A DNA stretch of 64,000 nt from Candidatus Omnitrophota bacterium (GTDB lineage Bacteria; Omnitrophota; Gorgyraeia; Gygaellales; Profunditerraquicolaceae), in the NCBI GenBank assembly GCA_963805065.1, contig CAWDSS010000010.1, positions 536,359-600,358 of the forward strand, in the 5' to 3' direction. The translations under genes were made by a program, and so were the position numbers. Below the pieces are notes generated by a model. It searched no databases, was not told where the DNA came from, and saw only the letters and a program-made list of their open reading frames with translations. Below are positions 43,569 to 63,782 of the stretch, one piece after another; position 1 is the stretch's first letter; every line of letters starts with the position of its first letter.

Positions 43569-43650
43569 TTTCGCCTCATTTAAAAAGCTTTATAAAACTT
43601 ATTAGTAAGTCCTTAAATAAAAAAGGTTGTCAAATACTGACTTTTCTCGT

Positions 43651-43750
43651 CGATATTCGGCAACCCGGCTATCTTTTCTTGCTTGACTTGGAATCTCCAA
43701 GACCCGTGGCTTTGCGCCCCCTGATCACTCAGGGTTTACCTTTTCGATCC
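43651..43750 (-). promoter_or_regulatory. GEMM-I (c-di-GMP-I riboswitch)-like aptamer candidate in the giant-gene leader
   Basis: Minus-strand RNA GGAUCGAAAAGGUAAACCCUGAGUGAUCAGGGGGCGCAAAGCCACGGGUCUUGGAGAUUCCAAGUCAAGCAAGAAAAGAUAGCCGGGUUGCCGAAUAUCG. It has GGUAAAC, then a 6-bp hairpin with a GNRA loop (CCCUGA-GUGA-UCAGGG), then GCGCAAAGCC, a second hairpin, and AGCCGGGUUGCCGAAU. From memory, the Vc2/GEMM-I blocks are GGCAAAC ... GACGCAAAGCC ... AGCGGGGUUACCGAUGG. Confidence 0.5.
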
Positions 43751-43772
43751 CCTACTTTTCAATTGCATTTCA

Positions 43773-43801
43773 AGTATAACATTTCAATAATCCCTTGTCA
43801 A
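43773..43801 (-). promoter_or_regulatory. Sigma-70-type promoter of the giant gene
   Basis: Minus strand TTGACA (43796-43801), 17-nt spacer, TATACT (43773-43778), about 295 nt upstream of the ATG. Confidence 0.6.
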
Positions 43802-43852: not shown

Positions 43853-43909
43853 GGGACACCCAATATTTCAAAGCAGGGACACCCTTGTTTCTGAAGCTAA
43901 AGGTGTCCC
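43853..43909. repeat. GGGACACCC REP-like element, type 1 (half-site plus hairpin)
   Basis: GGGACACCCAATATTTCAAAGCAGGGACACCCTTGTTTCTGAAGCTAAAGGTGTCCC. It is near-identical to 54795-54851. Confidence 0.8.
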
Positions 43910-43957
43910 CTCTACCCTAAAATCTAGTAGATTATCCTTACAAACCTAATTCTACAT

Positions 43958-43993
43958 AGGGACACCCTTCCGATTGATTTCGAGGGTGTCCCT
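43958..43993. repeat. GGGACACCC REP-like hairpin, type 2
   Basis: AGGGACACCCTTCCGATTGATTTCGAGGGTGTCCCT. It differs at one base from the copy at 56838-56873. Confidence 0.85.
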
Positions 43994-44062
43994 GCTGTTC
44001 TATGTTTGCGGTGAATGAACCAAATTTTCGGGCTTTAATGATGAATTTTCGGGTATTTCTTT

Positions 44063-44174: not shown

Positions 44175-45044
44175 TTAACCTTTGAACAAATTACCTTGCG
44201 TGAATTGTAAGATAATTGGACCGGCGATAACTATTCCTATAACCGGCAATATGCAGAATATAAGCGGGATAAGCATTTTCATGGGGGCTTGTAGGGCTAT
44301 TCTTTCTCCTCTTTGTGCCCGTTGCATCCTGACGTCCTCAGACAACATACCCAGGACCTCAACCACGGGGGTACCCATTCTTTCTGCCTGGGTGAGAGTA
44401 TTGACAAAAGAGCGTATCTCCGGAAGCTCTATCCTTTTGGCCATATCTTTTAAAGCCTGTAAACGGGGCTTGCCCCATTTTATTTCTTCCAGGACAAACG
44501 CTAATTCTTCTATCATAGGGTTGGTTTTGGTCTTCTTAACTATCCATTCCATGGACATGGTAAAATCTAATCCTGCATCCATGCACAGGCTCAATAAATC
44601 TACTACCTCAGGCAGCACTTTCGAAATAACTTGCCTGCGTTTTGCTATTCTCTTGCTTAGCCAAACATCAGGAATCATATAACCAAATGCCAAAGCCGCA
44701 ACTATGGCAGGAGCTACAATCTTGCTAAATATAAGATAGGTTACAAATACTAAAGCAATCATTAATACAAACTTTAGGCTGAAGAATTCTACGGGTGTCA
44801 GCTTAAGGCGGGCAGCATACAGCCTCTGGTAAATCTTTTCTTTTAACTTGGGGTTCTGCAAGGCGAAGTTGCTGAGCCGAAACACCGGTTTTAAATACCT
44901 CAGGAAATCCGCCTTTACTCCCGTAGGTAGTTCTGATGAGGGAAGGCGCTGGCGTATCTGGGCGTTACTGTTCATAATGCCCAGGGTTGCCGTAAGCACA
45001 AGGCCGATAGCAACGATGAAAAATAAGAAAATCAGGTATATCAT
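44175..45044 (-). CDS. tadC: Tad/Flp pilus inner-membrane platform protein TadC (T2SS-F family)
   Basis: 289 aa. GspF-like core LPEVVDLLSLCMDAGLDFTMSMEWIV ... RSFVNTLTQAERMGTPVVEVLGMLSEDVRMQR with N- and C-terminal TM helices. It is the second of two tandem paralogues. Confidence 0.8.
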   Translation of the reverse strand: MIYLIFLFFIVAIGLVLTATLGIMNSNAQIRQRLPSSELPTGVKADFLRYLKPVFRLSNFALQNPKLKEKIYQRLYAARLKLTPVEFFSLKFVLMIALVFVTYLIFSKIVAPAIVAALAFGYMIPDVWLSKRIAKRRQVISKVLPEVVDLLSLCMDAGLDFTMSMEWIVKKTKTNPMIEELAFVLEEIKWGKPRLQALKDMAKRIELPEIRSFVNTLTQAERMGTPVVEVLGMLSEDVRMQRAQRGERIALQAPMKMLIPLIFCILPVIGIVIAGPIILQFTQGNLFKG

Positions 45045-45046
45045 GT

Positions 45047-45895
45047 TTAGAAATCTATCTTACTGAATTGGATTATTAAAAAAATCCCCAATATCTGCAG
45101 GAAAGCAGCTGCCATCAAAAACATCCTGCCGACATCGCTTTGCAGCATAATATCAAAATGATGCCTGTTTATCGTAAGCACCCATCCGATAAACGCAATG
45201 GGTAATACCGACATGACTACGCCCTGAATCTTTCCCTGAAGAGTCAAGGTGGTTATCTGGTCTCTGAGTTTACGTTTAGCCCTCATGGTTTCGGCAAGCC
45301 TAGAAAATACCTTGGTAAGGTCGCCTCCTGTTTCGCGCGCCACAAGTATGGAACTTACCATCAGCTCAAGGTCATCAGATTGGGTGCGTTTATTTAGGCG
45401 GGCAAGACTCTCCTCCAGGGGAATCCCTACCTTGTTCTCCCTTAAAACCAGGCTGAATTCCTGGTTAAGGGGTGGAGGCATTTCTTCCACTACAACTTCC
45501 ATGGCCTGCAATAAAGATAGGCCTCCTTTTAATGCCGAGGAAAGCGTCATCAGCGCATCTACAAGCTGGTTTTGAAACTTTTTCTTACGCGTCACTTCGA
45601 TTCTCTTGATTATAACCTCAGGCAAAATAAAACCTGCGGCCATGCCGATTAATACGAAGGCTATCTTATTAAAAATAAAAAAAGCTGCTGCTGCCAAAAT
45701 AACCGGGCTTAGGGTATAATATAAAAAGAGCTTGCTGGTGGGAACCATCACGAACATATCTTCCAGCTGGGTCTCTGCCTGGCTTACCTTCTTTCTCTGG
45801 GCGCGGTGAAATTTATTGGTAAGAAAAGGCACCAGCTGGCTGCCAATCAAACCTACCGAAGCAAACATAAATATCAATATGATTAGTTTAAGCAT
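45047..45895 (-). CDS. tadB: Tad/Flp pilus inner-membrane platform protein TadB (T2SS-F family)
   Basis: 282 aa. LVDALMTLSSALKGGLSLLQAMEVVVEEMPPPLNQEF ... LMVSSILVARETGGDLTKVFSRLAETMRAKRKL. TM helices at both ends. Confidence 0.8.
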   Translation of the reverse strand: MLKLIILIFMFASVGLIGSQLVPFLTNKFHRAQRKKVSQAETQLEDMFVMVPTSKLFLYYTLSPVILAAAAFFIFNKIAFVLIGMAAGFILPEVIIKRIEVTRKKKFQNQLVDALMTLSSALKGGLSLLQAMEVVVEEMPPPLNQEFSLVLRENKVGIPLEESLARLNKRTQSDDLELMVSSILVARETGGDLTKVFSRLAETMRAKRKLRDQITTLTLQGKIQGVVMSVLPIAFIGWVLTINRHHFDIMLQSDVGRMFLMAAAFLQILGIFLIIQFSKIDF

Positions 45896-45910
45896 AAATA
45901 AACCTGGCTG

Positions 45911-46132
45911 CTACTCGAACCTGCCGCAGGGAATGAGGTTTCCTGCGGAATCATAACATTTGGTGCCGGTCGGATAATACTGCCTGCCGTGGCCGAATGT
46001 ATCTCCCACATCACGCCACCTGCCGGTTATCGCCCTCCTTAAATAAACTGACATGGCAAGCAATGCAGCTACGATTATTGCGATTAACACTGCGTACTCT
46101 AATGAACTAAAGGCCTTGCGTATATTAATCAC
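45911..46132 (-). CDS. Flp/pseudopilin-like small protein
   Basis: The N-terminus MINIRKAFSSLEYAVLIAIIVAALLAMSVYLRRAITGRWRD shares the xSxLEY + hydrophobic helix + Y-x-(K/R)R motif with the pilin paralogues at 50.7-52.8 kb. Confidence 0.55.
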   Translation of the reverse strand: MINIRKAFSSLEYAVLIAIIVAALLAMSVYLRRAITGRWRDVGDTFGHGRQYYPTGTKCYDSAGNLIPCGRFE

Positions 46133-46580
46133 CTGCCCCCTCCCATTGTATATTAATCAACTTCTTTCCCCCTGATTCGAACAGGGTGAATAAAACTGTT
46201 TTTGATTTTAGATTATAATCCGCTGATACGACTGTTTCTAAGCCGCCTTTTTGGTAAATGCGCCAATTAGTAACTGCTTGAAATTTTCCTCCCGCCTGCC
46301 TTGAGCCTCGGGCAAAACTTTTATAAAATTCTCTCCTGTAAGCTTCCTTTTCCTTTGCGTTAGCAAGCTTACTATAGGTTGCCCCCACGTCTAAACCTAA
46401 AGCCTTCAGATGCTCCCAGTCAACGAACTTTTCCATGTCTTGTTTTCCTTCCACAAAGCCCTGGAAAATACCGCGGCATAATTCTATATCGTTAGGCTGC
46501 TGTCTGTATAAATAGACGGCGAGGATTAACGCAAGGATGATTAGGACAAACCCCAAAACCTTCTTATATTCATTATTCAT
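46125..46580 (-). CDS. Hypothetical membrane-anchored protein
   Basis: 151 aa with an N-terminal TM (VLGFVLIILALILAVYLY). Tightly packed within the operon. No family recognised. Confidence 0.5.
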   Translation of the reverse strand: MNNEYKKVLGFVLIILALILAVYLYRQQPNDIELCRGIFQGFVEGKQDMEKFVDWEHLKALGLDVGATYSKLANAKEKEAYRREFYKSFARGSRQAGGKFQAVTNWRIYQKGGLETVVSADYNLKSKTVLFTLFESGGKKLINIQWEGAGD

Positions 46581-46583
46581 AGC

Positions 46584-49415
46584 TTAGTGCGTTCCAGACA
46601 AAGACACGTCTGTAGCCGTATAGCTAGCGCGGCTCGTGCGTTTAATGGTAGTTGTCGGCCCGGCAACAGGACTCCAGATTAAACCCAGGTTAGCCGAGCC
46701 AGAATGAGTAAGCGCCGTTCCCGCAGGGTCAGTTCGGGTAATTTCTATCCAGGTGTTTTTGGAATCTTTGTCCCACCAAAGTTTCTGGCACTTCTTACCC
46801 CTAAGCCAGTTTCCCGAAGAAGTCTTGTGTAAATAAGGGAACAAAAATGCCCCGGTTTCCACCCTCACAGAATGTTCTCCTTCAGTATCCTTCCAGCTGT
46901 ATTCTACTGCTCCTTTTCCATCTTTAGCGCGATTATCCGGAGAGCTTATCAAGACATCGTTAAACTGCTGTAATTCCGGAAGAAAAGCATTGATACTCTG
47001 AATTTCATCTGTCAGTGTATCTAAAACCGGCTGAAATTCATCTTGGTTATCTTGGTCTATGGTAGCAAAGGTATCATCAGATGCGCCATTGTAAGTAAGG
47101 TTGCTGATGTAATTTTGCAACGCTGTTAGGCGGCTATTAAAAGTGGCTGGGGCTGTTGCTGGTATATTCAGATCAGGCGCGGCAATACTACGGCTTACAG
47201 TGCCCCTGCCTGACCCGGGGTATGTTGTTGTGGTGGTTGTGGTAGTGGTGCAACCAGCGTTGCCAGTTTGAATGCAGCTGCAAGTCCACCAGCCGTAAGG
47301 ATTCCAAATGCAAGGAGACGCGCAACAGGGTGAAGTCGGGGCGCATACACTGCCATATACAGGCCATGCGCCTGTGCCATCAGGAGCAGGACGCGTAGTG
47401 CCTGCCACTGATAGAGTTCCACATGAAATTGGGGTGGTCGTGCTTGTAGTACAAGTGCAAGTATATGTATATGACACATCCCAACTCATTGTTCCAGAAC
47501 CAGGGGGGCCCAACGGCGTGGTACTACAACCGCTATGAATAGGGCTGGTTAGTCCCACGCTATTTATACTGGTTATTGCAATACTGCCAACAGAACATGT
47601 GCCGGGATAAGGACAGGAAGCTGCAGAATAGCCTGTAGTGGGCGGGCTTAAGTAGTTACTTCCGGCAACAGCTATCTCATTAAGCAGGATAGATTTGTCT
47701 GACGGATAAACTTTACATATAGGATTGGGGAAATAGGGACCGGTAATGCTTGTTCCGGTCAGCCTCCAATTACAGGAATAATCACTATCATTGCAAGAAT
47801 ATTCTGCTGCACTTTCTTCTTTATAAACAGTGGTGCTACCCGTGTTATATGCCAACTGGCAACCCGGCAAACTATTCCTTACCCTAGTAATCTGGTCTTT
47901 CCAATCATTCATCCAAGTAGCAATTCCTGCTAACATATTGTAGTGATCCATTGTCGTAGCTGTATGATGCGAGTAATACAGGTTATCAAACCAGTCCCAA
48001 TCATCAGAGCCTCCGCTGGGATATCTTTGCTTTAACTGTTGGCTCAATTGATTTGCGTCATATTTATAAAAGCCGCAGGAATCCGGCTTTAATATGTCTT
48101 TTGCGTCTTTAAGGAAATCTTCGTAATGCATGCGGGCGTAATCATAATCATCCAAGCTTGATGGCAGGTCAGGGCAATCAGTATCGCTGTTTTCATTACA
48201 ATTATAATAAGCATCGAGGTCGGCTTGTGTAGGGCCGGGTATGTAGAAAATAGCATACCCGCAATGCGCAATAGCGTCCAACAGACGGGTCATCGGAGAC
48301 TCTGAGCCTAAATAATACGCGGACGTGCCGGAACCCATTGCGACCTCTGGACCGCAAGAACATTCTATTTCTTTTCTATCCATCTGCTTAATGAAATCCG
48401 AAGCCTGCTCATAAAATGGAATCAGGGAATTAGTTAAGAAATTATTTACCAAATCCTTGAGATTGGTAATTGAGTTTTGCAGGTTCTGCAGATGATTATA
48501 CCACCAATAATCAAAACAGCGAGTCCTTTCAGCGGTTATGCCGTCGTGGTCTAAATCCAGGGGGTCTCCTCCGGAAACTACGACCGAGGAATCATTCCAG
48601 GTAACCCAGTTGCCGTCAGAGGAAGTCCAGCCAACTGAGGTATTTTCACCACAAGTAACGTCTTTGGAAAGATTAGTCATAGTCGGGTCATCCACCACCT
48701 GATTAAGCGCATAGAGAAATATCCCTTCCCTGGCAGCTTCATATTCAGGCAAGCCGTTTAACATCTTATTTAATGTAGACATATTCTGGCTATTTATTGC
48801 TGCCTTGTTACTTGCGTTATAAGCAATGGCTCCTGTGCCAACTGTCCCTGTTGCAGCTGAAGCTACAGCTACTACATCGCCTATTGATATACTGGACAAT
48901 TCTCCTGATGCTAAACCAGCAAATTCCTTTGCTGCAAACTCGGACCCTCCAAAAAAAGCGCTTGCCGCAGCAAACCCCTGCAGCGCTCCCATTCCAGCCC
49001 CATTTACTCCTTGCACAATCATGTTTCCAATGGCTCCTGCAGCTGTAACTAAACCGAAAAATCCTACCCATCCCCATAAGCCTGCTGGCGGACAGCAAAT
49101 TGTTAAAACTAATGCTACTATGAAAGCAAGCACAACGCCTAATAATCCACTCCTGCTGCATTTGCTATAGCTATTACCCAATGCCACATAGAGATAATGA
49201 GCTTTAGAAGCAAGCGTGCTTCCTAAATAAAGCGCAGTAGAATCAGCTGCATTGGCAACTGTGGTTGCCCTATAAGAAACAGTGCCCAGGTTAAGCGTAA
49301 CCAAAATAAACACTATCACCGCCACCATTATCAGTATAAGTATAGTGGCGATTTGGCCTCCAGCCGCCTGTATTTGGAGGTTGCGTAACGAAGATATTCT
49401 CTTTAAATAAATCAT
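46584..49415 (-). CDS. TadG-like large pilus-associated protein with a Cys/Thr-rich C-terminal half
   Basis: 943 aa. The N-terminal GGQIATILILIMVAVIVFILVTLNLGTV resembles the TadE/G-like anchor. A Gly-rich hydrophobic block follows (GLWGWVGFFGLVTAAGAIGNMIVQGVNGAGMGALQGFAAASAFFGG). The C-terminal half has many Cys and a T9 run (CTTTTTTTTTYPGSG, about 47215-47260). Confidence 0.6.
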   Translation of the reverse strand: MIYLKRISSLRNLQIQAAGGQIATILILIMVAVIVFILVTLNLGTVSYRATTVANAADSTALYLGSTLASKAHYLYVALGNSYSKCSRSGLLGVVLAFIVALVLTICCPPAGLWGWVGFFGLVTAAGAIGNMIVQGVNGAGMGALQGFAAASAFFGGSEFAAKEFAGLASGELSSISIGDVVAVASAATGTVGTGAIAYNASNKAAINSQNMSTLNKMLNGLPEYEAAREGIFLYALNQVVDDPTMTNLSKDVTCGENTSVGWTSSDGNWVTWNDSSVVVSGGDPLDLDHDGITAERTRCFDYWWYNHLQNLQNSITNLKDLVNNFLTNSLIPFYEQASDFIKQMDRKEIECSCGPEVAMGSGTSAYYLGSESPMTRLLDAIAHCGYAIFYIPGPTQADLDAYYNCNENSDTDCPDLPSSLDDYDYARMHYEDFLKDAKDILKPDSCGFYKYDANQLSQQLKQRYPSGGSDDWDWFDNLYYSHHTATTMDHYNMLAGIATWMNDWKDQITRVRNSLPGCQLAYNTGSTTVYKEESAAEYSCNDSDYSCNWRLTGTSITGPYFPNPICKVYPSDKSILLNEIAVAGSNYLSPPTTGYSAASCPYPGTCSVGSIAITSINSVGLTSPIHSGCSTTPLGPPGSGTMSWDVSYTYTCTCTTSTTTPISCGTLSVAGTTRPAPDGTGAWPVYGSVCAPTSPCCASPCIWNPYGWWTCSCIQTGNAGCTTTTTTTTTYPGSGRGTVSRSIAAPDLNIPATAPATFNSRLTALQNYISNLTYNGASDDTFATIDQDNQDEFQPVLDTLTDEIQSINAFLPELQQFNDVLISSPDNRAKDGKGAVEYSWKDTEGEHSVRVETGAFLFPYLHKTSSGNWLRGKKCQKLWWDKDSKNTWIEITRTDPAGTALTHSGSANLGLIWSPVAGPTTTIKRTSRASYTATDVSLSGTH

Positions 49416-49431
49416 CCTGGCCTCTTAATCG

Positions 49432-49692
49432 CTAAAAATTCTTGAAAAAATCTAAATTTGCCAACTCATCTTCATTAACCTCTACTGTCCAGTTGGTCGC
49501 AGTATCTGCTGCTATTTCCCGGCCACATTCAGGGCTGCTTTCATAATACTGCTGGCGGATGACCAGTCGGTTATTCACATAAAGGAATATTGCCACTGCT
49601 GCCCAAAAAAGAAGCAGCACGATGACCATGGCAAAAGCGAATTCTAAAGTTACCTGGCCGTTACCAGGGTGTTTCCTGGGTCTGTTTTTCAT
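49432..49692 (-). CDS. TadE-like minor pilin
   Basis: 86 aa. GNGQVTLEFAFAMVIVLLLFWAAVAIFLY matches the TadE-like N-terminal motif. Confidence 0.6.
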   Translation of the reverse strand: MKNRPRKHPGNGQVTLEFAFAMVIVLLLFWAAVAIFLYVNNRLVIRQQYYESSPECGREIAADTATNWTVEVNEDELANLDFFKNF

Positions 49693-50743
49693 TCCTGTTC
49701 TCGGTATTGGTTATAGGAGTCTCGGTAACTGTACTAGTTCCATAATGCCTGAACACAATCATCCTGATATTGCTATAATTTTGGCTTAAGGTATCGGTTG
49801 TAGTTATGCCTGTAGTTGCCTCCTGTTTCCTTAATGTGTTATTCTTTATATGGGTATCTGTGTAATCCTGCTGCACACCCATGCTCTTTAAATTGTTGGC
49901 AGCAACACTAAAAAGATTATCTAACTCACTTCCGCAATACCAGGGAATCTCAATATCGGGGCTGCAGAGTTGGGAACAATTGGTTCCTGACTCAAGCTGG
50001 CATTCTTTTACGCAAAAATTCTTGTCGGTTATAGTGTTGCACTGCCTCTTACAACCGCTATAATCCAAAATTTCTCCTTCGCAGGAATCAATAACCTTTA
50101 TAGAGCTTAATGTATTCCAATTTGGATCTTTTTGGTCCCAGTTGCTTCCACCGGAAGTTAACCCTTGCATATTTTGAGCAGTGTATATCAATGCATATTT
50201 TTGCCACCTGCGTTCTTTTTCGCAATTGTCAGTGGTCCCTATGGCAATATTGCGGAACCCCGCAGTAAGATAATAACAGGGAGGATTACTTCCCGGCGGC
50301 GAAAGCCGGCAATTGTTTCTACACGCACTATCATTAGCTGCGCAAGTCCCACAAGCTACCGCTCCGTCTGGCCCGCCGCTGCCAGGACAAGTGCTGCCTT
50401 TAATATCAATTGCCATTGCTGGCAATTCATCAATATAATCTGCGGTTTCATTCATTGTATAATTACGTATAACAGAGGCAGCGGAATTTGCGGGGATAAA
50501 AGAACCCTGCCCAAAGGCATCGCTGGGATCGGGTATGTGCCTATCGCTTATATATATGTAGCTGGCTGTTCCTTTTTGCTTGGCGAGTATTAATGCCCTT
50601 CTAAATGTTTGCTGCGTTATCTGTTGCAGGTAATTATTTTTTAGGCCGTAAGAAAGGAGGGCTGCGATAAAGGCTATTAACAGGGCTCCTAAGATGGAAA
50701 TTTCCAATAATGATTGCGCCTTTTTTTTCCTATGAATTAGCAT
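49661..50743 (-). CDS. Pseudopilin-like protein with a large Cys-rich domain (TadF/minor-pilin candidate)
   Basis: 360 aa. The N-terminus is KKKAQSLLEISILGALLIAFIAALL. About 15 Cys are spread through the C-terminal 250 aa. Confidence 0.5.
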   Translation of the reverse strand: MLIHRKKKAQSLLEISILGALLIAFIAALLSYGLKNNYLQQITQQTFRRALILAKQKGTASYIYISDRHIPDPSDAFGQGSFIPANSAASVIRNYTMNETADYIDELPAMAIDIKGSTCPGSGGPDGAVACGTCAANDSACRNNCRLSPPGSNPPCYYLTAGFRNIAIGTTDNCEKERRWQKYALIYTAQNMQGLTSGGSNWDQKDPNWNTLSSIKVIDSCEGEILDYSGCKRQCNTITDKNFCVKECQLESGTNCSQLCSPDIEIPWYCGSELDNLFSVAANNLKSMGVQQDYTDTHIKNNTLRKQEATTGITTTDTLSQNYSNIRMIVFRHYGTSTVTETPITNTENRNEKQTQETPW

Positions 50744-50756
50744 CGCTTAACAACTC

Positions 50757-51134
50757 TTACGGTAATGGCCCAACATCCTCCCAGCCGTTCTGTCTTGTAT
50801 TATCATGACTGGAAACAGTATCTGTGGTCCTTAGCCTTCCCCCTACTTCATTAGTAGTGGCGCTGGAAGTGCTTGTACTGTTCGATGTAATGGTGATATC
50901 GGAAGTTGTGTTTTTTGGTTCGTAGGAATTGCCAATCTGATCGGCACTATCTCGGTAATTGCCCTGGAAGCTTCTTTTTATATATGAGGACATGCTTATG
51001 AGTGCAGCTACAAACACTGCTATGACCACGGCATATTCCAAAGCTGATTGCGCTTTGCTTAATTTAATAAGTCTTGTCTCTGTCTGAATGCGATTGGTCA
51101 TGCGGCACATCGCCTTGTGACGCCTGGTTAACAT
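50757..51134 (-). CDS. Flp-like pilin paralogue (start uncertain; the track start overlaps the upstream gene by 71 nt)
   Basis: LSKAQSALEYAVVIAVFVAALISMSSYIKRSFQGNYRDSADQIGNSY followed by an S/T-rich tail. Confidence 0.6.
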   Translation of the reverse strand: MLTRRHKAMCRMTNRIQTETRLIKLSKAQSALEYAVVIAVFVAALISMSSYIKRSFQGNYRDSADQIGNSYEPKNTTSDITITSNSTSTSSATTNEVGGRLRTTDTVSSHDNTRQNGWEDVGPLP

Positions 51135-51411
51135 CCGTTCTATAACTTCCGTCTACAAAACTTCTTTTTCTTGTGACCCCGGAGCTGCTGCCAGTTTGAG
51201 AAGATTCATCTATCCATACACCATCCTTAGCCGTCTCGTTAGCATCTTCCTGGCTGCCTACCTGGTCCGCTGCTACTCTTACTACTGCCTGAATCCCGCG
51301 CTTCATGTAAACCTGCATGCCAACGAGAACAGCACTGACAATTGCGATTAGTATAACATATTCCGCTATACTTTGTCCACTATAAAGATGTCGTAATTCC
51401 TTGCTTTCCAT
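51064..51411 (-). CDS. Flp-like pilin paralogue
   Basis: SGQSIAEYVILIAIVSAVLVGMQVYMKRGIQAVVRVAADQVGSQ. Confidence 0.65.
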   Translation of the reverse strand: MESKELRHLYSGQSIAEYVILIAIVSAVLVGMQVYMKRGIQAVVRVAADQVGSQEDANETAKDGVWIDESSQTGSSSGVTRKRSFVDGSYRTDVNQASQGDVPHDQSHSDRDKTY

Positions 51412-51453
51412 GATCTTTTCGCGAATTTGCCAGTGCTGCCCCCTATTAGCTTT

Positions 51454-51777
51454 TTACGGATACCACTCCTGATCCAAAGCACCCACGTTCTCACTGGTAT
51501 TCTTATTTTGAGCCTGATTCGTGACCACGTTAGTTGTTGACCCTGGTCCTCCTGATATGGTTTCTACAGAATGACCCTGCGTTATACTTGTAAGAGAAGT
51601 ACTTGATGTGGTCTGAGGAGAAAACTGATCGCCAATATCATTGGATGAATCTCTTAGTTTACCCTGAACACCACGTTTAATATAACTGGACATAGCAATT
51701 AATGCAGCTACGATTACTGCAATAACTACAGCATATTCAAGCGTATTCTGCCCTTTTTTATTTAAATGAATAAACAT
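51454..51777 (-). CDS. Flp-like pilin paralogue (start moved to the ATG at 51777)
   Basis: GGAGGTG lies 6 nt before the ATG. MFIHLNKKGQNTLEYAVVIAVIVAALIAMSSYIKRGVQGKLRDSSNDIGDQF. The track start at 51786 is a GTG inside the SD. Confidence 0.7.
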   Translation of the reverse strand: MFIHLNKKGQNTLEYAVVIAVIVAALIAMSSYIKRGVQGKLRDSSNDIGDQFSPQTTSSTSLTSITQGHSVETISGGPGSTTNVVTNQAQNKNTSENVGALDQEWYP

Positions 51778-51807
51778 TACTTTCACCTCCTTAGATTAAA
51801 CTTTTAT

Positions 51808-52134
51808 TTACGGCGTTGCAGTCATAGTCTGGTTACGATTAGCTGTTGTATCCATGTTGGAACCCCTGGTTGTTGCTCCGCCTAAACTTACATTTTCATT
51901 CTGGCTTCCAGTCTGATCAGTTGTGGTAGTGCCAGTAAGATAATACGGTTCGTATTGTTTGGTGTCTGTGGTAGTCGCCATACCCGAACCCATATTGTCT
52001 ACCACGTCCTTAACCTTTCCCTGTAACCCTCTTTTTACATATATCTGCATTGCTGTAACTGCAGCTACTACTAAAGCAATTAAGATTGCGTATTCAGCGG
52101 TGGTTTGTGCCCTTTTACCAATTTTACGTAACAT
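51808..52134 (-). CDS. Flp-like pilin paralogue (start moved to the ATG at 52134)
   Basis: GGAGGTG lies 6 nt before the ATG. MLRKIGKRAQTTAEYAILIALVVAAVTAMQIYVKRGLQGKVKDVVDNMGSG. Confidence 0.7.
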   Translation of the reverse strand: MLRKIGKRAQTTAEYAILIALVVAAVTAMQIYVKRGLQGKVKDVVDNMGSGMATTTDTKQYEPYYLTGTTTTDQTGSQNENVSLGGATTRGSNMDTTANRNQTMTATP

Positions 52135-52149
52135 TCGTCTCACCTCCTT

Positions 52150-52314
52150 TTAGAAATTTATTTTCTGTGCTTCATTATTCATCTGCGTTGCCGCGTTTTC
52201 TAATGAGCTCTGGACCTTAGGCTTCAAGAAATTGTTAGCGAAGATGATTATTACTGCGATAATCGCGGTCAAGATAATCACGTACTCTAATACACTTTGT
52301 CCCTTCTTGTTCAT
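52150..52314 (-). CDS. Short Flp pilin (54 aa; start moved to the ATG at 52314)
   Basis: GAGGAGGTGA lies 4 nt before the ATG. MNKKGQSVLEYVIILTAIIAVIIIFANNFLKPKVQSSLENAATQMNNEAQKINF. Its size and G-QSVLEY motif are typical of a mature-pilin precursor. Confidence 0.7.
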   Translation of the reverse strand: MNKKGQSVLEYVIILTAIIAVIIIFANNFLKPKVQSSLENAATQMNNEAQKINF

Positions 52315-52378
52315 TTTGTCACCTCCTCTCATATTTATGCTCAATAAATATCTACCCATCTATCACCTCCTTCAATAA

Positions 52379-52537
52379 TTACTGTATCGATTCTACATTG
52401 GTCTGTTGCTGGATCATTAATAAGTTTGCGTATATTGAACGCCTTACATATAGGCTTATCGCCATTATAGCCGCTAAAACAATGGTAATAAGCAAGCTGT
52501 ACTCCAACACACTCTGGCCTTTATATTTTCTTATCAT
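52379..52537 (-). CDS. Short Flp pilin (52 aa) absent from the ORF track
   Basis: The ATG at 52537 lies one base after the TAA of the upstream gene, and AAGGTG precedes it. Hand translation: MIRKYKGQSVLEYSLLITIVLAAIMAISLYVRRSIYANLLMIQQQTNVESIQ, stop at 52379-52381. Confidence 0.65.
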   Translation of the reverse strand: MIRKYKGQSVLEYSLLITIVLAAIMAISLYVRRSIYANLLMIQQQTNVESIQ

Positions 52538-52538
52538 C

Positions 52539-52754
52539 TTACCACACCTTGTTATCAGCGTTAATTATGGCATCAAACCCTTTTTGAGCATAACCTGGTG
52601 TTGCGGAAGTGCCTTGCGCTGTATCTCTCACGCTTCCAAAAAAGCTATTTATCGTACCGCCTAATGTAAGCAAGGTTAAAAAAATCACCGCTGTAAAAAG
52701 TAAAAAATACTCTAAAGTAGCTTGCCCTCTTTTTAAAGACTTTTTTAAAATCAT
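52539..52754 (-). CDS. Flp-like pilin paralogue, first gene of the pilin operon
   Basis: GAGGAG lies 6 nt before the ATG. MILKKSLKRGQATLEYFLLFTAVIFLTLLTLGG. Confidence 0.7.
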   Translation of the reverse strand: MILKKSLKRGQATLEYFLLFTAVIFLTLLTLGGTINSFFGSVRDTAQGTSATPGYAQKGFDAIINADNKVW

Positions 52755-52795
52755 TATTAACTCCTCAAAAAATAAACCGAGTCACACGAATCTCT

Positions 52796-52950
52796 AACGG
52801 CATTCGCTAACCCGGTTAACTTACTCGCTTAGACCCAAAAACAAAAATAAAAACTTTTTTTCCGGCGAGCATATCCCGTGGCTTTGCGCATCCACTTACC
52901 TCCATAAGTGAGATGCTCCCTCCGTAACCCGGAGGAATTTCGCTGCCGTT
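52796..52950 (-). promoter_or_regulatory. Leader RNA of the pilin operon sharing GEMM-I-like blocks with the giant-gene leader
   Basis: Minus RNA has a closing stem AACGGCA...UGCCGUU. Inside it are the hairpin CCUCCG-GGUUA-CGGAGG, an extra hairpin CACUUA-UGGAGG-UAAGUG, then UGCGCAAAGCCACGGG and later AACCGGGUUAGCGAAUG. The two blocks GCGCAAAGCCACGGG and CCGGGUU-CGAAU also occur in the giant-gene leader. Confidence 0.35.
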
Positions 52951-52974
52951 ATTTATATCTTTAATGACACTTAA

Positions 52975-53003
52975 AATATAACATCTATAACATCAAGTGT
53001 CAA
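52975..53003 (-). promoter_or_regulatory. Sigma-70-type promoter of the pilin operon
   Basis: Minus strand TTGACA (52998-53003), 17-nt spacer, TATATT (52975-52980). Confidence 0.6.
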
Positions 53004-53033
53004 GGACATTTCGGGTTAAAATGAAAGCGCTTG

Positions 53034-54707
53034 CTAAACTGCAAACCAGAGCCTTAATTTCTGGGAGGTTAAAATTTCCCTTTCGTTCAATCTGCGGCAG
53101 GCATACTCAAGATCTTTTAATAATGGGAACCCCTGTGGTGGTTTGAAAGTTATCCTTAACCCATCTTTTTCTTGGCTTATATCAGTGGTTAGTTTGTAAA
53201 AGTGTTCTTTTGTGAAGGCAAAATCCTTATTTTCATATCCCACGGGTAAAAAGTGCCATCTTACATATAAGTCTAATGCTTCCAGATAGTTACTGAATAG
53301 AATCCCGCTTTCAGGGTTGGTTTCTTTCTCTAATTTAAGTATTTCTGTAGAAAAAAACCTGCCAGAAGCACCGGTATATGTGAAAAGTTCAATTTTTCGG
53401 CTGTAGTCATGGAATGCCTCTTCAAAATTCGGCCAGTGGCTTAGATATGCATTTAGCCATTGAGAAGCAGGTGCATCATCAACAAAATTAGTCAAAACAA
53501 TTAATCTTGTTTTCTCGGTCAAATTTGTTTTTAAAGCATTGCCTCTAAACGTAACATGTTGACTTGTATTTGGTTGTGTTAACTCAATTTCGATTTCTGC
53601 AGCATATATTTCTTTGCCCAGCGGTTCTGCAAAAAATGGCTTAAATTCCCCTATCTTTTTCACTTTTCTATACTCTACGAACTGCCAAGGCCATAACCCG
53701 AAGACAAAATATTGCTTTTTATCCTGGTTTATAGAAAGGCGCTCCAATTCATCAAAATTACTGTCACAAAGAGTCAGTTGTGTAATTTTCTTTGCCGTAG
53801 AATCAAAACTTAAGATAAAACTAAAGAACTCTTTGGTAGGAGCATCATATCCCGGCGCCATGAACAGCAAAAAAGGAGAATTATCCCGAAAATATCTATT
53901 TATGTAACTCTTGATATCATAAATAGTTGTGGAAAAATCGTGAGGGATATGCGGCGTGGACCAAATTGTATGTAACTGTCCATCTAAATACATGATGCTG
54001 CCATCAGACATATTGACTTTAACACAGCGCACTTCCTGCAGTGTGCTGGATATTATGCGTAATAGATCTAAAGGAATTGATTTAACTGATTGCAATTCAT
54101 TGAGATAAGCTACGATGGTTTCAGCGGGTATTTCCTGGCCTGCTAAGGGATATGCAATGCTTTTTGGCGCTTCTTTAGCACCTTGGAACAAACCAAGATA
54201 AATAAGGCTTTCTGTCTTAGCTAAAAAGTCCTCGTTCGGCCGGTTGAGCCTGGCTTTGATAGCGTCGGAAAAGTAGTAGCTGCCGCCAATAAGGTAATCA
54301 GCTGCCTTAAGTAAGATAGCGCCTGTACAGGCTATCTTTTTAGGCTCTTGAGCCTTAATTTCGACGAGTGGTTCTGCAACCTTAATGGGCTTTGGCTGGG
54401 GCTCTGGAACCGGAATCACTGGCGCAGGCGCTTCAGGCTTAATTTCTACCGGTACTTCAAGCAACTTCGGTTCCTGTGGTTTTTCCAGCATAACTACAGG
54501 CTTACGCCTCTTTTTTTGCCTCCTTCCCACCGGCAGGCTTAACCCCTGTTGCTTTATAATTGAATTTATGCTGGATTTAGAGAGTTTTATCTGAAATTTC
54601 TCTTCTACCAAGGCAGTCATACCGCGACAGCTTAGGATTGGCTTGGTTTTTTTCTCCTCTAAAATGAAATCTATTATTTCCGGCTTTAATTTGTAAATTA
54701 CGCCCAT
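53034..54707 (-). CDS. HTH-domain protein, possibly transposase-like or a regulator (start moved to the ATG at 54707)
   Basis: GGAG lies 5 nt before the ATG. The N-terminus MGVIYKLKPEIIDFILEEKKTKPILSCRGMTALVEEKFQIKLSKSSINSIIKQQGLS looks like an HTH. A K/P/E-rich linker and a roughly 430-aa unrecognised domain follow. The track start at 54755 would lie inside the predicted promoter. Confidence 0.6.
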   Translation of the reverse strand: MGVIYKLKPEIIDFILEEKKTKPILSCRGMTALVEEKFQIKLSKSSINSIIKQQGLSLPVGRRQKKRRKPVVMLEKPQEPKLLEVPVEIKPEAPAPVIPVPEPQPKPIKVAEPLVEIKAQEPKKIACTGAILLKAADYLIGGSYYFSDAIKARLNRPNEDFLAKTESLIYLGLFQGAKEAPKSIAYPLAGQEIPAETIVAYLNELQSVKSIPLDLLRIISSTLQEVRCVKVNMSDGSIMYLDGQLHTIWSTPHIPHDFSTTIYDIKSYINRYFRDNSPFLLFMAPGYDAPTKEFFSFILSFDSTAKKITQLTLCDSNFDELERLSINQDKKQYFVFGLWPWQFVEYRKVKKIGEFKPFFAEPLGKEIYAAEIEIELTQPNTSQHVTFRGNALKTNLTEKTRLIVLTNFVDDAPASQWLNAYLSHWPNFEEAFHDYSRKIELFTYTGASGRFFSTEILKLEKETNPESGILFSNYLEALDLYVRWHFLPVGYENKDFAFTKEHFYKLTTDISQEKDGLRITFKPPQGFPLLKDLEYACRRLNEREILTSQKLRLWFAV

Positions 54708-54743
54708 TTTATCTCCAGATTGGACATTTATAATCTCAATACA

Positions 54744-54772
54744 AATATAACACACATAGAATAAGCTGTCAA
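54744..54772 (-). promoter_or_regulatory. Sigma-70-type promoter of the HTH gene, flanked by AGATTGGACATTT copies
   Basis: Minus strand TTGACA (54767-54772), 17-nt spacer, TATATT (54744-54749). The 13-mer copies at 54717-54729 and 54780-54792 bracket it. Confidence 0.55.
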
Positions 54773-54859: not shown

Positions 54860-56340
54860 AACGAAAAAATCTTTGTTAGAAATAGTGACCTGATACGTCT
54901 GTTATGTTAGAGAGTGTCAAACTTTATTACATGATAGACCTGCCAGCTTTTAGAGCCTTTTAACTTTCTGTTATGCGTGGCATGCCGAAATTTCGGCATC
55001 GCACTATTTAATTTTGCGTTTGGAGCCTAGGGGTCCCTATCTATTATCGAGCCTTATAGCTCTGACGTACGACCGAGTCATCCCCAGAGGCAAGCGTTGC
55101 TTGTGGCTCTTAAGGCTTGGCATCTAAATATTAGCGATGTATTCACGCTGCTCTTTTAAAACTCTATAAATAATCAAGGTTAATTTACGCGCCACCGCGA
55201 CAATGGCTTTACGTGAGCCAACCTGAGGATGATGTTTAGCGCGTATGCGATCGTAGAATTGGCGCAGCCGTGCATCTTTGTTAATGTTCGCCCAGGCAGC
55301 TTCAACCAGTAAGGACCTAAGCACAGAGCTGCCTAAATGGGTGATACGACCTCGCAAGATTCGTTCTCCTGTTGAGTATTCACTAGGCACGAGTCCCGCA
55401 AAAGCAGATAACTCTCTGGGGTTACGCAACTGCTGTGGGTCACCAATGCTTGCAAGAATAGTTATAGCGGTAATAAAGCCTATGCCGGGAATAGAGCGAA
55501 GATAATGTATATTGCGTTTAAGGCTTGCATCTTGCTCAGAGAGCTTTTTAAGCTCTTTAAGGATTATCAAAGTTTGGTTACGTGAATACTCTAGGTCATT
55601 AAGGAGTAAATCTAATCTTTGGCGCGTAGCCGGGCTACAGGGTAGTTCTTTGAGTCGTTTAATATGTGCATAAGACCAATACTGGGTCGTATCTTTTAAT
55701 AGTGTGTGCAGATGGGCAAAAAGTAGAAGCGATTTGATGCGTTGTTTGCTTACTTTACGCATATCGACATATTCTTCACGCGAACGAAGCAGCTGGCGCA
55801 GCTCCCGGCAATCGTAATCCGGGATACGAATAGGTTGCATATCGCCGTTCTTTAAATGCTGGGAGATTCTCTCTGAATCAAGGCGGTTATTCTTGATACG
55901 ATCATTACTGGCTTTGGGGATTGATGGAGGCGGTACCATTAAACACCTTATGTTTTTTGATGTTAAATAATCATGCAGATAATAACCAGTTACTCCGACT
56001 TCATAAGCGCAGATAACCCTTTTATTATTATACCTGTTGCGTATATGTTGGTAAAGATTTTCCGGATTAGCCGGTATTTTGTGCGAGTTGTTCATGGTAT
56101 CGTGATTTTTGACGGTAAATGAGAAGCTTTTCTGATCAACGTCTATGCCTATGAAAATATCGTACTCGTTGGGGCTGTACGCCATGCTTTCCTCCTGGTT
56201 AAACGGTTAAACTATTTACCTTTAGTTTACACCATATTTTGGAAAGCTCGGCACTCTAAACATATTATCTATTATAGTAAAGGCAAAAGTAAAAAGCCAA
56301 AAGGAAAAAGTTAGGGCTAAGTCAAAAATAAGAGGAGGTG
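54860..56340 (-). mobile_element. IS110-family insertion sequence (ends not determined)
   Basis: A single DEDD transposase gene has about 260 nt of structured non-coding sequence downstream and about 160 nt upstream. IS110-family elements lack classical terminal inverted repeats, so the boundaries cannot be read off. Confidence 0.5.
55124..56185 (-). CDS. IS110-family (DEDD) transposase/recombinase
   Basis: 353 aa. N-terminal IFIGIDVDQKSFSF (RuvC-like DEDD). C-terminal LRSIPGIGFITAITILASIGDPQQLRNPRELSAFAGLVPSEYSTGE...GRITHLGSSVLRSLLVEAAW, typical of the IS116/IS110/IS902 family. Confidence 0.85.
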   Translation of the reverse strand: MAYSPNEYDIFIGIDVDQKSFSFTVKNHDTMNNSHKIPANPENLYQHIRNRYNNKRVICAYEVGVTGYYLHDYLTSKNIRCLMVPPPSIPKASNDRIKNNRLDSERISQHLKNGDMQPIRIPDYDCRELRQLLRSREEYVDMRKVSKQRIKSLLLFAHLHTLLKDTTQYWSYAHIKRLKELPCSPATRQRLDLLLNDLEYSRNQTLIILKELKKLSEQDASLKRNIHYLRSIPGIGFITAITILASIGDPQQLRNPRELSAFAGLVPSEYSTGERILRGRITHLGSSVLRSLLVEAAWANINKDARLRQFYDRIRAKHHPQVGSRKAIVAVARKLTLIIYRVLKEQREYIANI

Positions 56341-56346
56341 ATATAA

Positions 56347-56829
56347 ATGCCTAGAGGTGCACGATTATTTGTAAATAATGCCTATTATCATATTGTCAAT
56401 CGCGGAAATCAAAAAGAGAAAATATTCATAGAACCCCCCGATTTTGAAAAATACCTACAGCTGTTAAAACACTACAAACGTAAATACGCTTTCGAAATCT
56501 TTGGCTATTGCCTCATGCCTAATCATGTTCACATAGTATTAGGGGCTAAAGCGGCGCATAAGTTGCCAAAGTTTATGCAAAGCTTGACTCAAACATACAC
56601 TATGTGGTTCAATGGCAAATATAATAAAGTTGGCCATCTTTGGCAGGGAAGATTCAAATGCATGATTATTCAAAGAGATGAATATTTTCTGGAAAGTATA
56701 TATTATGTTGAGGCTAATCCTGTAAGAGCCGGTATGGTTCATTCTCCTAAAGATTATGTTTGGAGTAGCTATAAAGACAGGATCTTCGGTAATAGAAACG
56801 GTTTGTTAGATCTGCCTGATTCAACCTAA
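56347..56829 (+). CDS. REP-associated tyrosine (Y1, HUH) transposase, RayT/IS200-like
   Basis: 160 aa. HUH motif in GYCLMPNHVHIVL. Tyr region SIYYVEANPVRAGMVHSPKDYVWSSY. AGGAGGTG SD. GGGACACCC hairpins lie immediately downstream. Confidence 0.8.
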   Translation: MPRGARLFVNNAYYHIVNRGNQKEKIFIEPPDFEKYLQLLKHYKRKYAFEIFGYCLMPNHVHIVLGAKAAHKLPKFMQSLTQTYTMWFNGKYNKVGHLWQGRFKCMIIQRDEYFLESIYYVEANPVRAGMVHSPKDYVWSSYKDRIFGNRNGLLDLPDST

Positions 56830-63707: not shown

Positions 63708-63782
63708 TAGCCCCAACGAGATTTGAACTCGTGTACTCAGCTTGAGAAGCTGATGTCCTAGACCGGGCTAGACGATGGGGCC
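63708..63782 (-). tRNA. tRNA-Glu (anticodon CUC)
   Basis: Minus strand GGCCCCAUCGUCUAGCCCGGUCUAGGACAUCAGCUUCUCAAGCUGAGUACACGAGUUCAAAUCUCGUUGGGGCUA. It has a 7-bp acceptor stem (G1-U72 wobble), a GUCU/GGAC D-stem, an anticodon stem UCAGC/GCUGA with loop UUCUCAA, and a T-arm ACGAG-UUCAAAU-CUCGU. No CCA is encoded. Confidence 0.85.

Follow-up and report, generated by a model that had tools for sequence, protein, structure and literature searches.

A stretch of 64,000 nucleotides from a Candidatus Omnitrophota bacterium (assembly GCA_963805065.1, contig CAWDSS010000010.1, positions 536,359 to 600,358), referred to here as the window, contains an operon for Flp-like pilins and Tad proteins and, downstream of it on the same strand, a gene for a giant protein. 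The analysis concerns the leader of the pilin operon, which, to judge from sequence comparison, is a divergent descendant of the GEMM-I riboswitch (RF01051), a class that binds cyclic di-GMP (c-di-GMP), and belongs to an Omnitrophota subfamily that precedes Flp/Tad pilin operons. All pilin-leader coordinates refer to the minus strand of the window, and the features are collected in Table 1. About nine small proteins of the operon carry a [GA]Q..LEY class III/Flp-like prepilin motif, and TadB and TadC match T2SSF with 80.6 and 60.5 bits. The Pfam matches to Class_IIIsignal, Flp and Tad are weak and lie under their cut-offs (Tad, 22.0 against 22.3). The assignment as a Tad/Flp operon is based on the prepilins, TadB/TadC and a TadE/G-like pseudopilin, with an ATPase and a secretin nearby. 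The open reading frames (ORFs) of the operon are uninterrupted, and we infer that the genes from the first pilin to tadC form one transcription unit.

Table 1. Features of the pilin and giant-gene leaders in the window, and paired GEMM-I elements in related contigs
Feature	Position	Strand	Details
Sigma-70-type pilin promoter	52975..53003	minus	TTGACA (53003-52998), 17 nt, TG-extended TATATT (52980-52975)
P1 5' strand	52944..52951	minus	UAACGGCA; G52943 bulged; RNAfold
P1 inner pairs	C52942-G52941 with C52806-G52805	minus	RNAfold; helices 1 and 2 of subfamily structure
Hairpin A	52917..52937	minus	UUCCUCCG-GGUUA-CGGAGGGA; J1/2 insertion between CGAAA and position 20
G21-C22, A23, P2	52891..52916	minus	G21-C22 = 52916-52915, A23 = 52914
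P2	52913-52891	minus	UC(U)CACUUAU, loop GGAG (52903-52900), then GUAAGUGGA
Shared 15-mer	52875..52889	minus	GCGCAAAGCCACGGG; C44 (52888), G45-C46 (52887-52886), A47 (52885), A48 (52884), start of P3 5' strand
P3	52809..52883	minus	base AGCC-A-CGG with CCG-GGUU; long distal extension with A-run/U-run
J3/1	52807..52808	minus	A52808 and G52807; G52807 = position 92
P1 3' side	52795..52806	minus	C52806-G52805 inner pairs, AA, then UGCCGUUA (52802-52795)
Intrinsic terminator	52767..52817	minus	AACCGGGUUAGCGAAU, loop GCCGUUAGAG, AUUCGU(G)UGACUCGGUU (16 bp, 52817-52775), then UAUUUUUU
First pilin-like gene	52539..52766	minus	Shine-Dalgarno GAGGAG (52766-52761), ATG 52754, 71 aa, MILKKSLKRGQATLEY...; weak Pfam Class_IIIsignal match
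Rest of operon	44175..52537	minus	about eight further small Flp-like pilins, 360-aa protein, 943-aa TadE/G-like protein, TadB 45895-45047, TadC 45044-44175
Giant-gene leader	43646..43801	minus	promoter TTGACA-17-TATACT (43801-43773, with TG), GEMM-I aptamer 43754-43646 with G20, A47, C92
L163	pilin switch 2083-2226; second GEMM-I 11272-11387		ORF 15,506 aa
L165	pilin switch 3297-3435; second GEMM-I 14183-14280		ORF 16,878 aa
L167	pilin switch 7960-8145; second GEMM-I 15812-15930		ORFs 994 aa, then 16,402 aa
L164	no pilin switch, 118-nt gap; second GEMM-I 13650-13766		ORF 30,181 aa

The pilin promoter lies where an initial annotation of the window had placed it as TTGACA-N17-TATATT. It matches 11 of 12 consensus positions, the TG of an extended -10 is present, and a TTGACA...TGTTATATTTTAAGTG block is found at the equivalent place in the leaders of relatives. 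Transcription likely starts near 52968, giving a leader of about 215 nt to the ATG, slightly shorter than the 220 nt first proposed. The closing stem annotated as AACGGCA/UGCCGUU was found and grows to 8 bp, UAACGGCA pairing with UGCCGUUA; inside it lie two hairpins, the block UGCGCAAAGCCACGGG, a long hairpin that includes both an A-run and a U-run, and then AACCGGGUUAGCGAAUG. Both the extra hairpin of the initial description and its long U-rich stretch are there, although each is re-read below. An intrinsic terminator, a feature that the initial annotation did not contain, follows. The predicted fold of the 214-nt leader has an energy of -68.1 kcal/mol (z = -4.5 relative to shuffles). Two blocks are shared with the leader of the giant gene, as had been reported. 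The window has only two exact copies of the 15-mer GCGCAAAGCCACGGG, one per leader (43703-43717 and 52875-52889); with up to two mismatches allowed, 0.07 matches are expected and none of 100 shuffles reached 2. Exact matches to CCGGGTTNNCGAAT are confined to 43655-43668 and 52802-52815, and the CCGGGUU-N2-CGAAU block is present where it had been annotated.

At gathering thresholds, the giant-gene leader was the only one of the two that Rfam reported. With RF01051 run at high sensitivity over 52700-53100 (401 nt), the pilin leader reached 16.1 bits against a threshold of 35 (E=1), in an alignment from which P2 was almost deleted; the cmsearch that had been suggested as a check therefore fails for this leader, an outcome that, considered by itself, had been named as refuting the proposal. 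The failure is due to altered pocket bases (A20, G92, GCA and A83, numbered from the Rfam alignment and the Vc2 numbering of PMC4744006). A covariance model termed R1 was built from 16 simple relatives that pass Rfam. R1 matched the pilin leader over model positions 1-147 with 80.5 bits (E about 5e-25) and the giant-gene leader with 48.1 bits; the sole other match in the window, at 8.2 bits (E = 0.77), is not significant. The earlier proposal of a GEMM-I candidate is thus borne out as to homology by R1, while the score with RF01051 itself stays below threshold.

Relatives of the pilin leader were collected in several ways. A protein search with the first pilin yielded a single homologue, leading to a 1.1-kb contig (L002) with a homologous leader that scores 38.8 bits with RF01051. 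A pattern scan of metagenome contigs gave 20 independent relatives including L002, and GTDB species genomes, when scanned, contributed 34 loci, almost all of them in metagenome-assembled genomes (MAGs) of Candidatus Omnitrophota. Closer relatives and long contigs were added by way of TadC and a conserved 573-aa protein encoded upstream. The search patterns fixed CGCAAAGCCACGG and CCGGGTT, so that invariance of J2/3 and the P3 base is uninformative, and left position 92 free in both collection scans. In total, about 65 related leaders were recovered. Nearly all come from Omnitrophota MAGs, and nearly all are located immediately 5' of small Flp-like pilin genes; in nearly every relative the gene that follows is of the same [GA]Q..LEY type and its product begins M(S/T)(L/F)KK.LK. 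The RF01051 threshold was passed by 21 of the 23 related pilin leaders that were scanned with Rfam (20 metagenome relatives at 35.3-49.9 bits, L165 at 44.6), the two below it being L163 (31.8 bits) and L167 (not reported). Sixty-three pilin-type matches, the window included, score at least 76 bits and are separated by a gap from other GEMM-I sequences at 64 bits or less.

The alignment and covariation check proposed with the initial annotation gave support for P1, P2 and P3. In a 69-sequence model alignment, 96% of pair cells hold standard pairs and 19 of 32 pairs show compensatory changes, values reached by 0 of 500 shuffles; 3' partners slid out of register pair in only 23-43% of cells. The pilin leader has the three helices arranged around a junction, with hairpin A as an added fourth helix. 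One alternative is that the shared sequence is a dispersed repeat, a protein-binding site or another leader element unrelated to GEMM-I, for which the sub-threshold Rfam score could be cited. This we regard as extremely improbable, given full-length homology to a family that mostly passes Rfam and the covariation of its helices. A dispersed repeat, one of the outcomes named at the outset as fatal to the proposal, is ruled out for the 15-mer, since its two copies in 64 kb each lie between a promoter and a gene and correspond to the J2/3 and P3 core of the aptamer. We also observed one metagenome contig (L098) with two divergent pilin-type riboswitches, at 2954-3093 (minus) and 5153-5298 (plus), each followed by a pilin-like gene.

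Comparison with the relatives was used to assign the helices of the window copy. Most relatives have the layout CGGCA(G/A)CGAAAAG-GC-AA(G/U)-[P2]-UGC-GC-AAAGCC..., which is canonical for GEMM-I. It follows that the hairpin adjoining the 15-mer is P2 and that the first hairpin, termed hairpin A, is an insertion in J1/2; the 'extra hairpin' of the initial annotation accordingly exists as a lineage-specific insertion, and its U-rich insertion is the subfamily's long P3, in which GCUCGCC...GGGUCA.AAGCGAG is a shared trait. All nine pairs of P2 covary in the subfamily; in L002 and L163 its 3' strand is identical to that of the window and its 5' strand has changed yet still pairs, and in L163 the Rfam alignment itself places the equivalent hairpin as P2. 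Two other assignments were rejected. Hairpin A cannot serve as P2 because most relatives lack it. The Rfam alignment of the window copy, which reads GGAGGUAAG as 'G20-GCAAA' and nearly deletes P2, had looked attractive because the giant-gene leader carries GGUAAA, but the relatives show that this segment is the loop and 3' strand of P2. At 8 bp the P1 of the window is the longest among 55 members, true CGGC/GCCG helices in relatives having 4-7 bp; only helices containing CGGC/GCCG are comparable, as the helix search picked spurious A/U-rich helices in some members.

Hairpin A ends with A52917, the base at position 20, which is paired into the hairpin in the predicted fold. Its counterpart in L002, with an identical stem, is CCUCC[91 nt]GGAGG. 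About 12 of 61 distinct members have one or two hairpins at the J1/2 site, with unrelated but covarying stems, and these give the junction four or five arms instead of three. We know of no description of such J1/2 insertions in GEMM-I. Examples that adjoin position 20 are found in L005:1545-1630, L009, L024, L112, L142, L145 and L163:2040-2095. The P2 loop of the subfamily almost always contains GGAGG, resembling a Shine-Dalgarno sequence, in place of the GNRA loop of type 1. The few members without the GGAGG loop (L104 and L152) are also without the conserved GGGUCA in P3. The joint absence of the two hints at a different P2-P3 contact.

In c-di-GMP-I aptamers, A47 of J2/3 (CGCAAAG) intercalates between the ligand guanines, G20 reads one of them and C92 forms a Watson-Crick pair with the other. 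The window copy retains A47 (A52885, inside GCGCAAAGCC), whereas position 20 is A rather than G and position 92 is G rather than C. C92 is found in 60 of 60 distinct relatives, including L002, L157/158, L159 and L163, and in 95 of 95 GEMM-I cores sampled. The J3/1 dinucleotide reads AC in 59 of 61 distinct sequences, GC in one, and AG in the window alone. Position 20 is mostly G in relatives, with about 6 carrying A (L024, L050, L070, L076, L125, L135) and about 7 carrying C (among them L048, L058, L130, L137, L159, L160). Thus position 20 is polymorphic (G/A/C) inside one tight subfamily that keeps C92, and the A20 members resemble cyclic GMP-AMP (cGAMP)-type pockets, known as GEMM-Ib. C44 is kept, and A52816 occupies the position of its interhelical partner G83, so that the C44-G83 pair is absent; 48 members have G at this position, 4 have A and 3 have U. 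About 7 relatives carry A or U there, A occurring in about five including L163. In the window copy GCAA is also shortened to GCA. L163 shares the J1/2 insertion and A83 with the window copy, yet G20, GCAA and C92 are retained there, and its Rfam score is 31.8 bits against 16.1 for the window copy.

Set beside GEMM-I of the Vibrio cholerae Vc2 type, the window copy shares the P1/P2/P3 junction, G21-C46 and C22-G45, J2/3 CGCAAAGCC with A47, the P3 base AGCC-A-CGG/CCG-GGUU, a J3/1 that starts with A, and a terminator platform. It differs, apart from A20, G92, GCA, the A at the G83 position and the J1/2 hairpin, in a P2 loop of GGAG (GGAGG-type in the subfamily) instead of GNRA, in a P3 of about 75 nt, and in scoring 16.1 bits where 35 are required. 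The consequences of such changes can be gauged from Vc2. In one study (10.1101/617340), G20 and C92 are described as contacting the ligand guanines, with substitutions disrupting binding, G83U as disrupting the structure, and C92U as partly rescued in vivo by raised c-di-GMP. The C44-G83 interhelical pair has been called universally conserved (PMC4744006). The engineered Vc2 double mutant G20A/C92U (PDB 3MUT/3MUV), like the window copy, differs at both bases that read the ligand; its affinity for c-di-GMP is 4900 nM compared to 0.011 nM for the wild type, figures quoted in PMC9049102 that correspond to a ~4x10^5-fold loss of affinity.

The 5' strand of the terminator consists of the P3 3' strand, J3/1 and the inner part of P1, with G92 pairing to U52786. 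The terminator fold is the minimum free energy structure of the full leader, at -65.1 kcal/mol compared to -62.6 kcal/mol when the aptamer is constrained, a gap of only 2.5 kcal/mol. Every member of the subfamily has an intrinsic terminator directly 3' of the aptamer, followed by a U-run, a Shine-Dalgarno sequence and the ATG. In relatives its 5' strand is either the P3 3' strand with J3/1 and the first P1 bases (partner GGUAAYCCGGYU) or ACCGAAAGCC (partner GGUUUUCGG). Energy comparison across the family is indicative only, the constraint being unsuited to the second terminator type and U-run detection having cut L002 short. Because aptamer and terminator are mutually exclusive, a ligand that stabilizes the aptamer should give read-through, and the structure points to an ON switch acting by antitermination.

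From its strong promoter, the nascent RNA would fold into P1, the inserted hairpin A, P2 and the long P3. An aptamer that persists during passage of the polymerase would block the terminator and let the genes from the pilin to tadBC be transcribed; without it, transcription would stop at the U-run. In the relatives, c-di-GMP bound at the junction (G20, A47, C92) should stabilize the aptamer and turn the operon on, and the giant-gene leader, with the same aptamer class, would follow the same platform logic. A precedent is provided by the pilA1 leader of Clostridioides difficile, described in PMC4744006, in which c-di-GMP switches a pilin gene on by preventing termination. The logic and the class of target are the same there, whereas the fold is the unrelated class II and the genes are for type IVa pili of a Firmicute rather than a Tad/Flp-like operon of Omnitrophota.

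In the window copy, A20, G92, the GCA for GCAA and A83 would alter the pocket, and P1 is lengthened to 8 bp. With moderate confidence, we propose that this copy responds weakly or not at all to c-di-GMP and allows partial read-through independent of ligand, a leaky ON state that the long P1 would help to maintain. Several observations weigh against this proposal or, as with the occurrence of the same pilin-leader sequence in a second assembly (L001), against simple decay. The terminator has adapted to G92 through a G-U pair and keeps a strong hairpin. Of the 43 columns with a conservation of 95% or more, the window copy fits about 40. Its 3 deviations (the member median is 0) do not place it last among the members, and two of them are partly alignment artefacts, so the element is not broadly decayed. 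Since A20 occurs in about six and A83 in about five otherwise canonical relatives, only G92 appears truly private. The conserved scaffold together with a strong, adapted terminator looks like a working regulator rather than a relic. Wild-type Vc2 binds so tightly that, by analogy, even a mutated pocket might retain a response to c-di-GMP in the micromolar range, and the energies compared above come from an equilibrium model of what would be a kinetic process.

An alternative, in line with the initial annotation, is that the leader is a working c-di-GMP ON riboswitch here, co-inducing the pilins and the giant protein as in the relatives. The overall fold, A47, G21-C46, C22-G45, C44 and the P3 base are preserved, as is the expression platform, which is also adapted, and the operon ORFs are uninterrupted; A20 variants occur in otherwise canonical relatives, and Vc2 C92U keeps a partial response at high c-di-GMP. 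We consider this alternative possible though rather unlikely, because G92 allows no Watson-Crick pair with the ligand guanine at a position where C is invariant in the 60 relatives and the 95 GEMM-I cores. Both recognition bases are changed, as in the Vc2 double mutant with its collapsed affinity, and the shortening of GCAA to GCA, A83 and the low Rfam score relative to the close relative L163 point the same way.

Changes that fall on both ligand-reading bases, with scaffold and terminator kept, could also mean that the pocket reads another cyclic dinucleotide, A20 recognizing an adenine (cGAMP-like) and G92 a pyrimidine, as in 3'3'-cUMP-AMP, so that the pilins would answer to a second signal. 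The two positions are known to set specificity, G20A shifting it to cGAMP and G20A/C92U to cyclic di-AMP (c-di-AMP; PMC7288161), and the subfamily is polymorphic (G, A, C) at position 20. The cGAMP riboswitches of Geobacter (GEMM-Ib) and Vc2 G20A share A20 with the window copy, but both keep C92, whereas the window copy has G92 and an A20 able to pair into the inserted hairpin; it therefore lacks the A20 and C92 combination that defines GEMM-Ib. Nor is it equivalent to Vc2 G20A/C92U, an A20/U92 pair that binds c-di-AMP, since the window has A20/G92. No second G92 sequence appeared in any scan, no natural GEMM-I with G92 was present in the 95-core sample, and no candidate ligand or synthase is known for this genome; the GCAA shortening and A83 suggest damage, not retuning. 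We therefore judge a second signal for the pilins to be a distant prospect, and it is similarly improbable that the A20/G92 pocket has been retuned rather than damaged, for example for an adenine-plus-pyrimidine ligand such as 3'3'-cUMP-AMP. If true, a retuned pocket would uncouple the Tad pilins from the c-di-GMP control of the giant gene, and would be a GEMM-I specificity not described before.

The giant gene itself has an uninterrupted ORF on the minus strand that starts with the ATG at 43478 and runs off the window end, encoding at least 14,492 aa. Its leader also has a terminator-like hairpin with a U-run at ~43664-43600, built on the same aptamer segment. Rfam placed it at 43655-43749 as RF03167 (c-di-GMP-I-GGC; 63.6 bits, threshold 59), a variant with G at position 47. 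Both window leaders have A there (CGCAAAG), so the RF03167 label of the giant-gene leader reflects overall similarity and not the variant base. The homologous giant-type leaders of L069, L163, L164 and L165 have A47 too and look like ordinary G20/A47/C92 aptamers with no more than a resemblance to the seed of the RF03167 model.

A GEMM-I element lies before a giant ORF (15,000-30,000 aa) in four further genomes, three of which also have a pilin-type switch (Table 1). In L069, the two aptamers are ~8.7 kb apart and the contig ends 53 nt past the second, so that any downstream ORF would lie outside it. The wiring of pilins and giant gene to the same kind of cis-element is a conserved lineage trait. 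The initial annotation had read the two transcription units of the window as sharing one cis-element; this wiring recurs in L163, L165 and L167 and is ancestral, but it cannot be assumed for the present genome, where G20 and C92 of the pilin leader are changed. Present-day co-regulation of the pilin operon and the giant gene is doubtful here, because only in the window copy of the pilin leader have the ligand-contacting bases been altered. In L164 the 118-nt gap before the first pilin (2478-2596) has no pilin-type aptamer, and since the aptamer of the giant ORF is kept, the pilin switch is dispensable in some lineages.

The Omnitrophota are nanobacteria that have yet to be cultured and are presumed to live by predation or parasitism; their two hallmark traits are Tad pili and giant ORFs. 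The Omnitrophota genome papers that were searched discuss Tad pili, giant ORFs and their adjacency but contain no mention of a riboswitch or c-di-GMP. Here each of the two sets of genes is preceded by a c-di-GMP-I aptamer, and the terminator logic, of the ON type, is common to both, which gives the testable hypothesis that these lineage genes are expressed at high c-di-GMP, as in attachment to a surface or host. The GEMM-I pairing is a simple regulon marker for MAGs. The window copy constitutes a natural experiment, with scaffold and terminator conserved and both ligand-reading bases changed. As this class of riboswitch is already well known, the result extends existing knowledge and introduces no new principle.

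Upstream of the pilin promoter, beyond the reach of the riboswitch, are genes for RcpC, a secretin, a T2SSE ATPase fused to a ParA-like domain (a TadZ-TadA fusion), a DUF192 protein, two insertion sequence (IS) transposases and the 573-aa protein. The last (53034-54755, minus), just 5' of the promoter, has no Pfam match and at least 428 homologues, essentially all in Omnitrophota and some named helix-turn-helix. Its gene keeps synteny with the leader; it has the orientation of the pilin genes in the window, L157, L163 and L164 and the reverse orientation in L165 and L167. A regulatory role is one possibility, and membership in an invertible or mobile unit is another. The transposases, of the IS110 family (55124-56185, minus) and the IS200-like Y1 type (56347-56829, plus), lie between the DUF192 and 573-aa genes. 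These two genes are adjacent in L157 and L164; a Y1 transposase occupies the same spot in L165 and L167 and lies beside the homologue in L161. Between the tadC stop and the giant-gene promoter (~43860-43995, minus) are two similar hairpins with arms GGGACACCC/GGGUGUCCC, followed by a third GGGTGTCCC copy; they might terminate transcription at the end of the operon or act as a repeat that binds a protein. The window also contains a tRNA gene at 63708-63782 (minus; RF00005, 59.1 bits).

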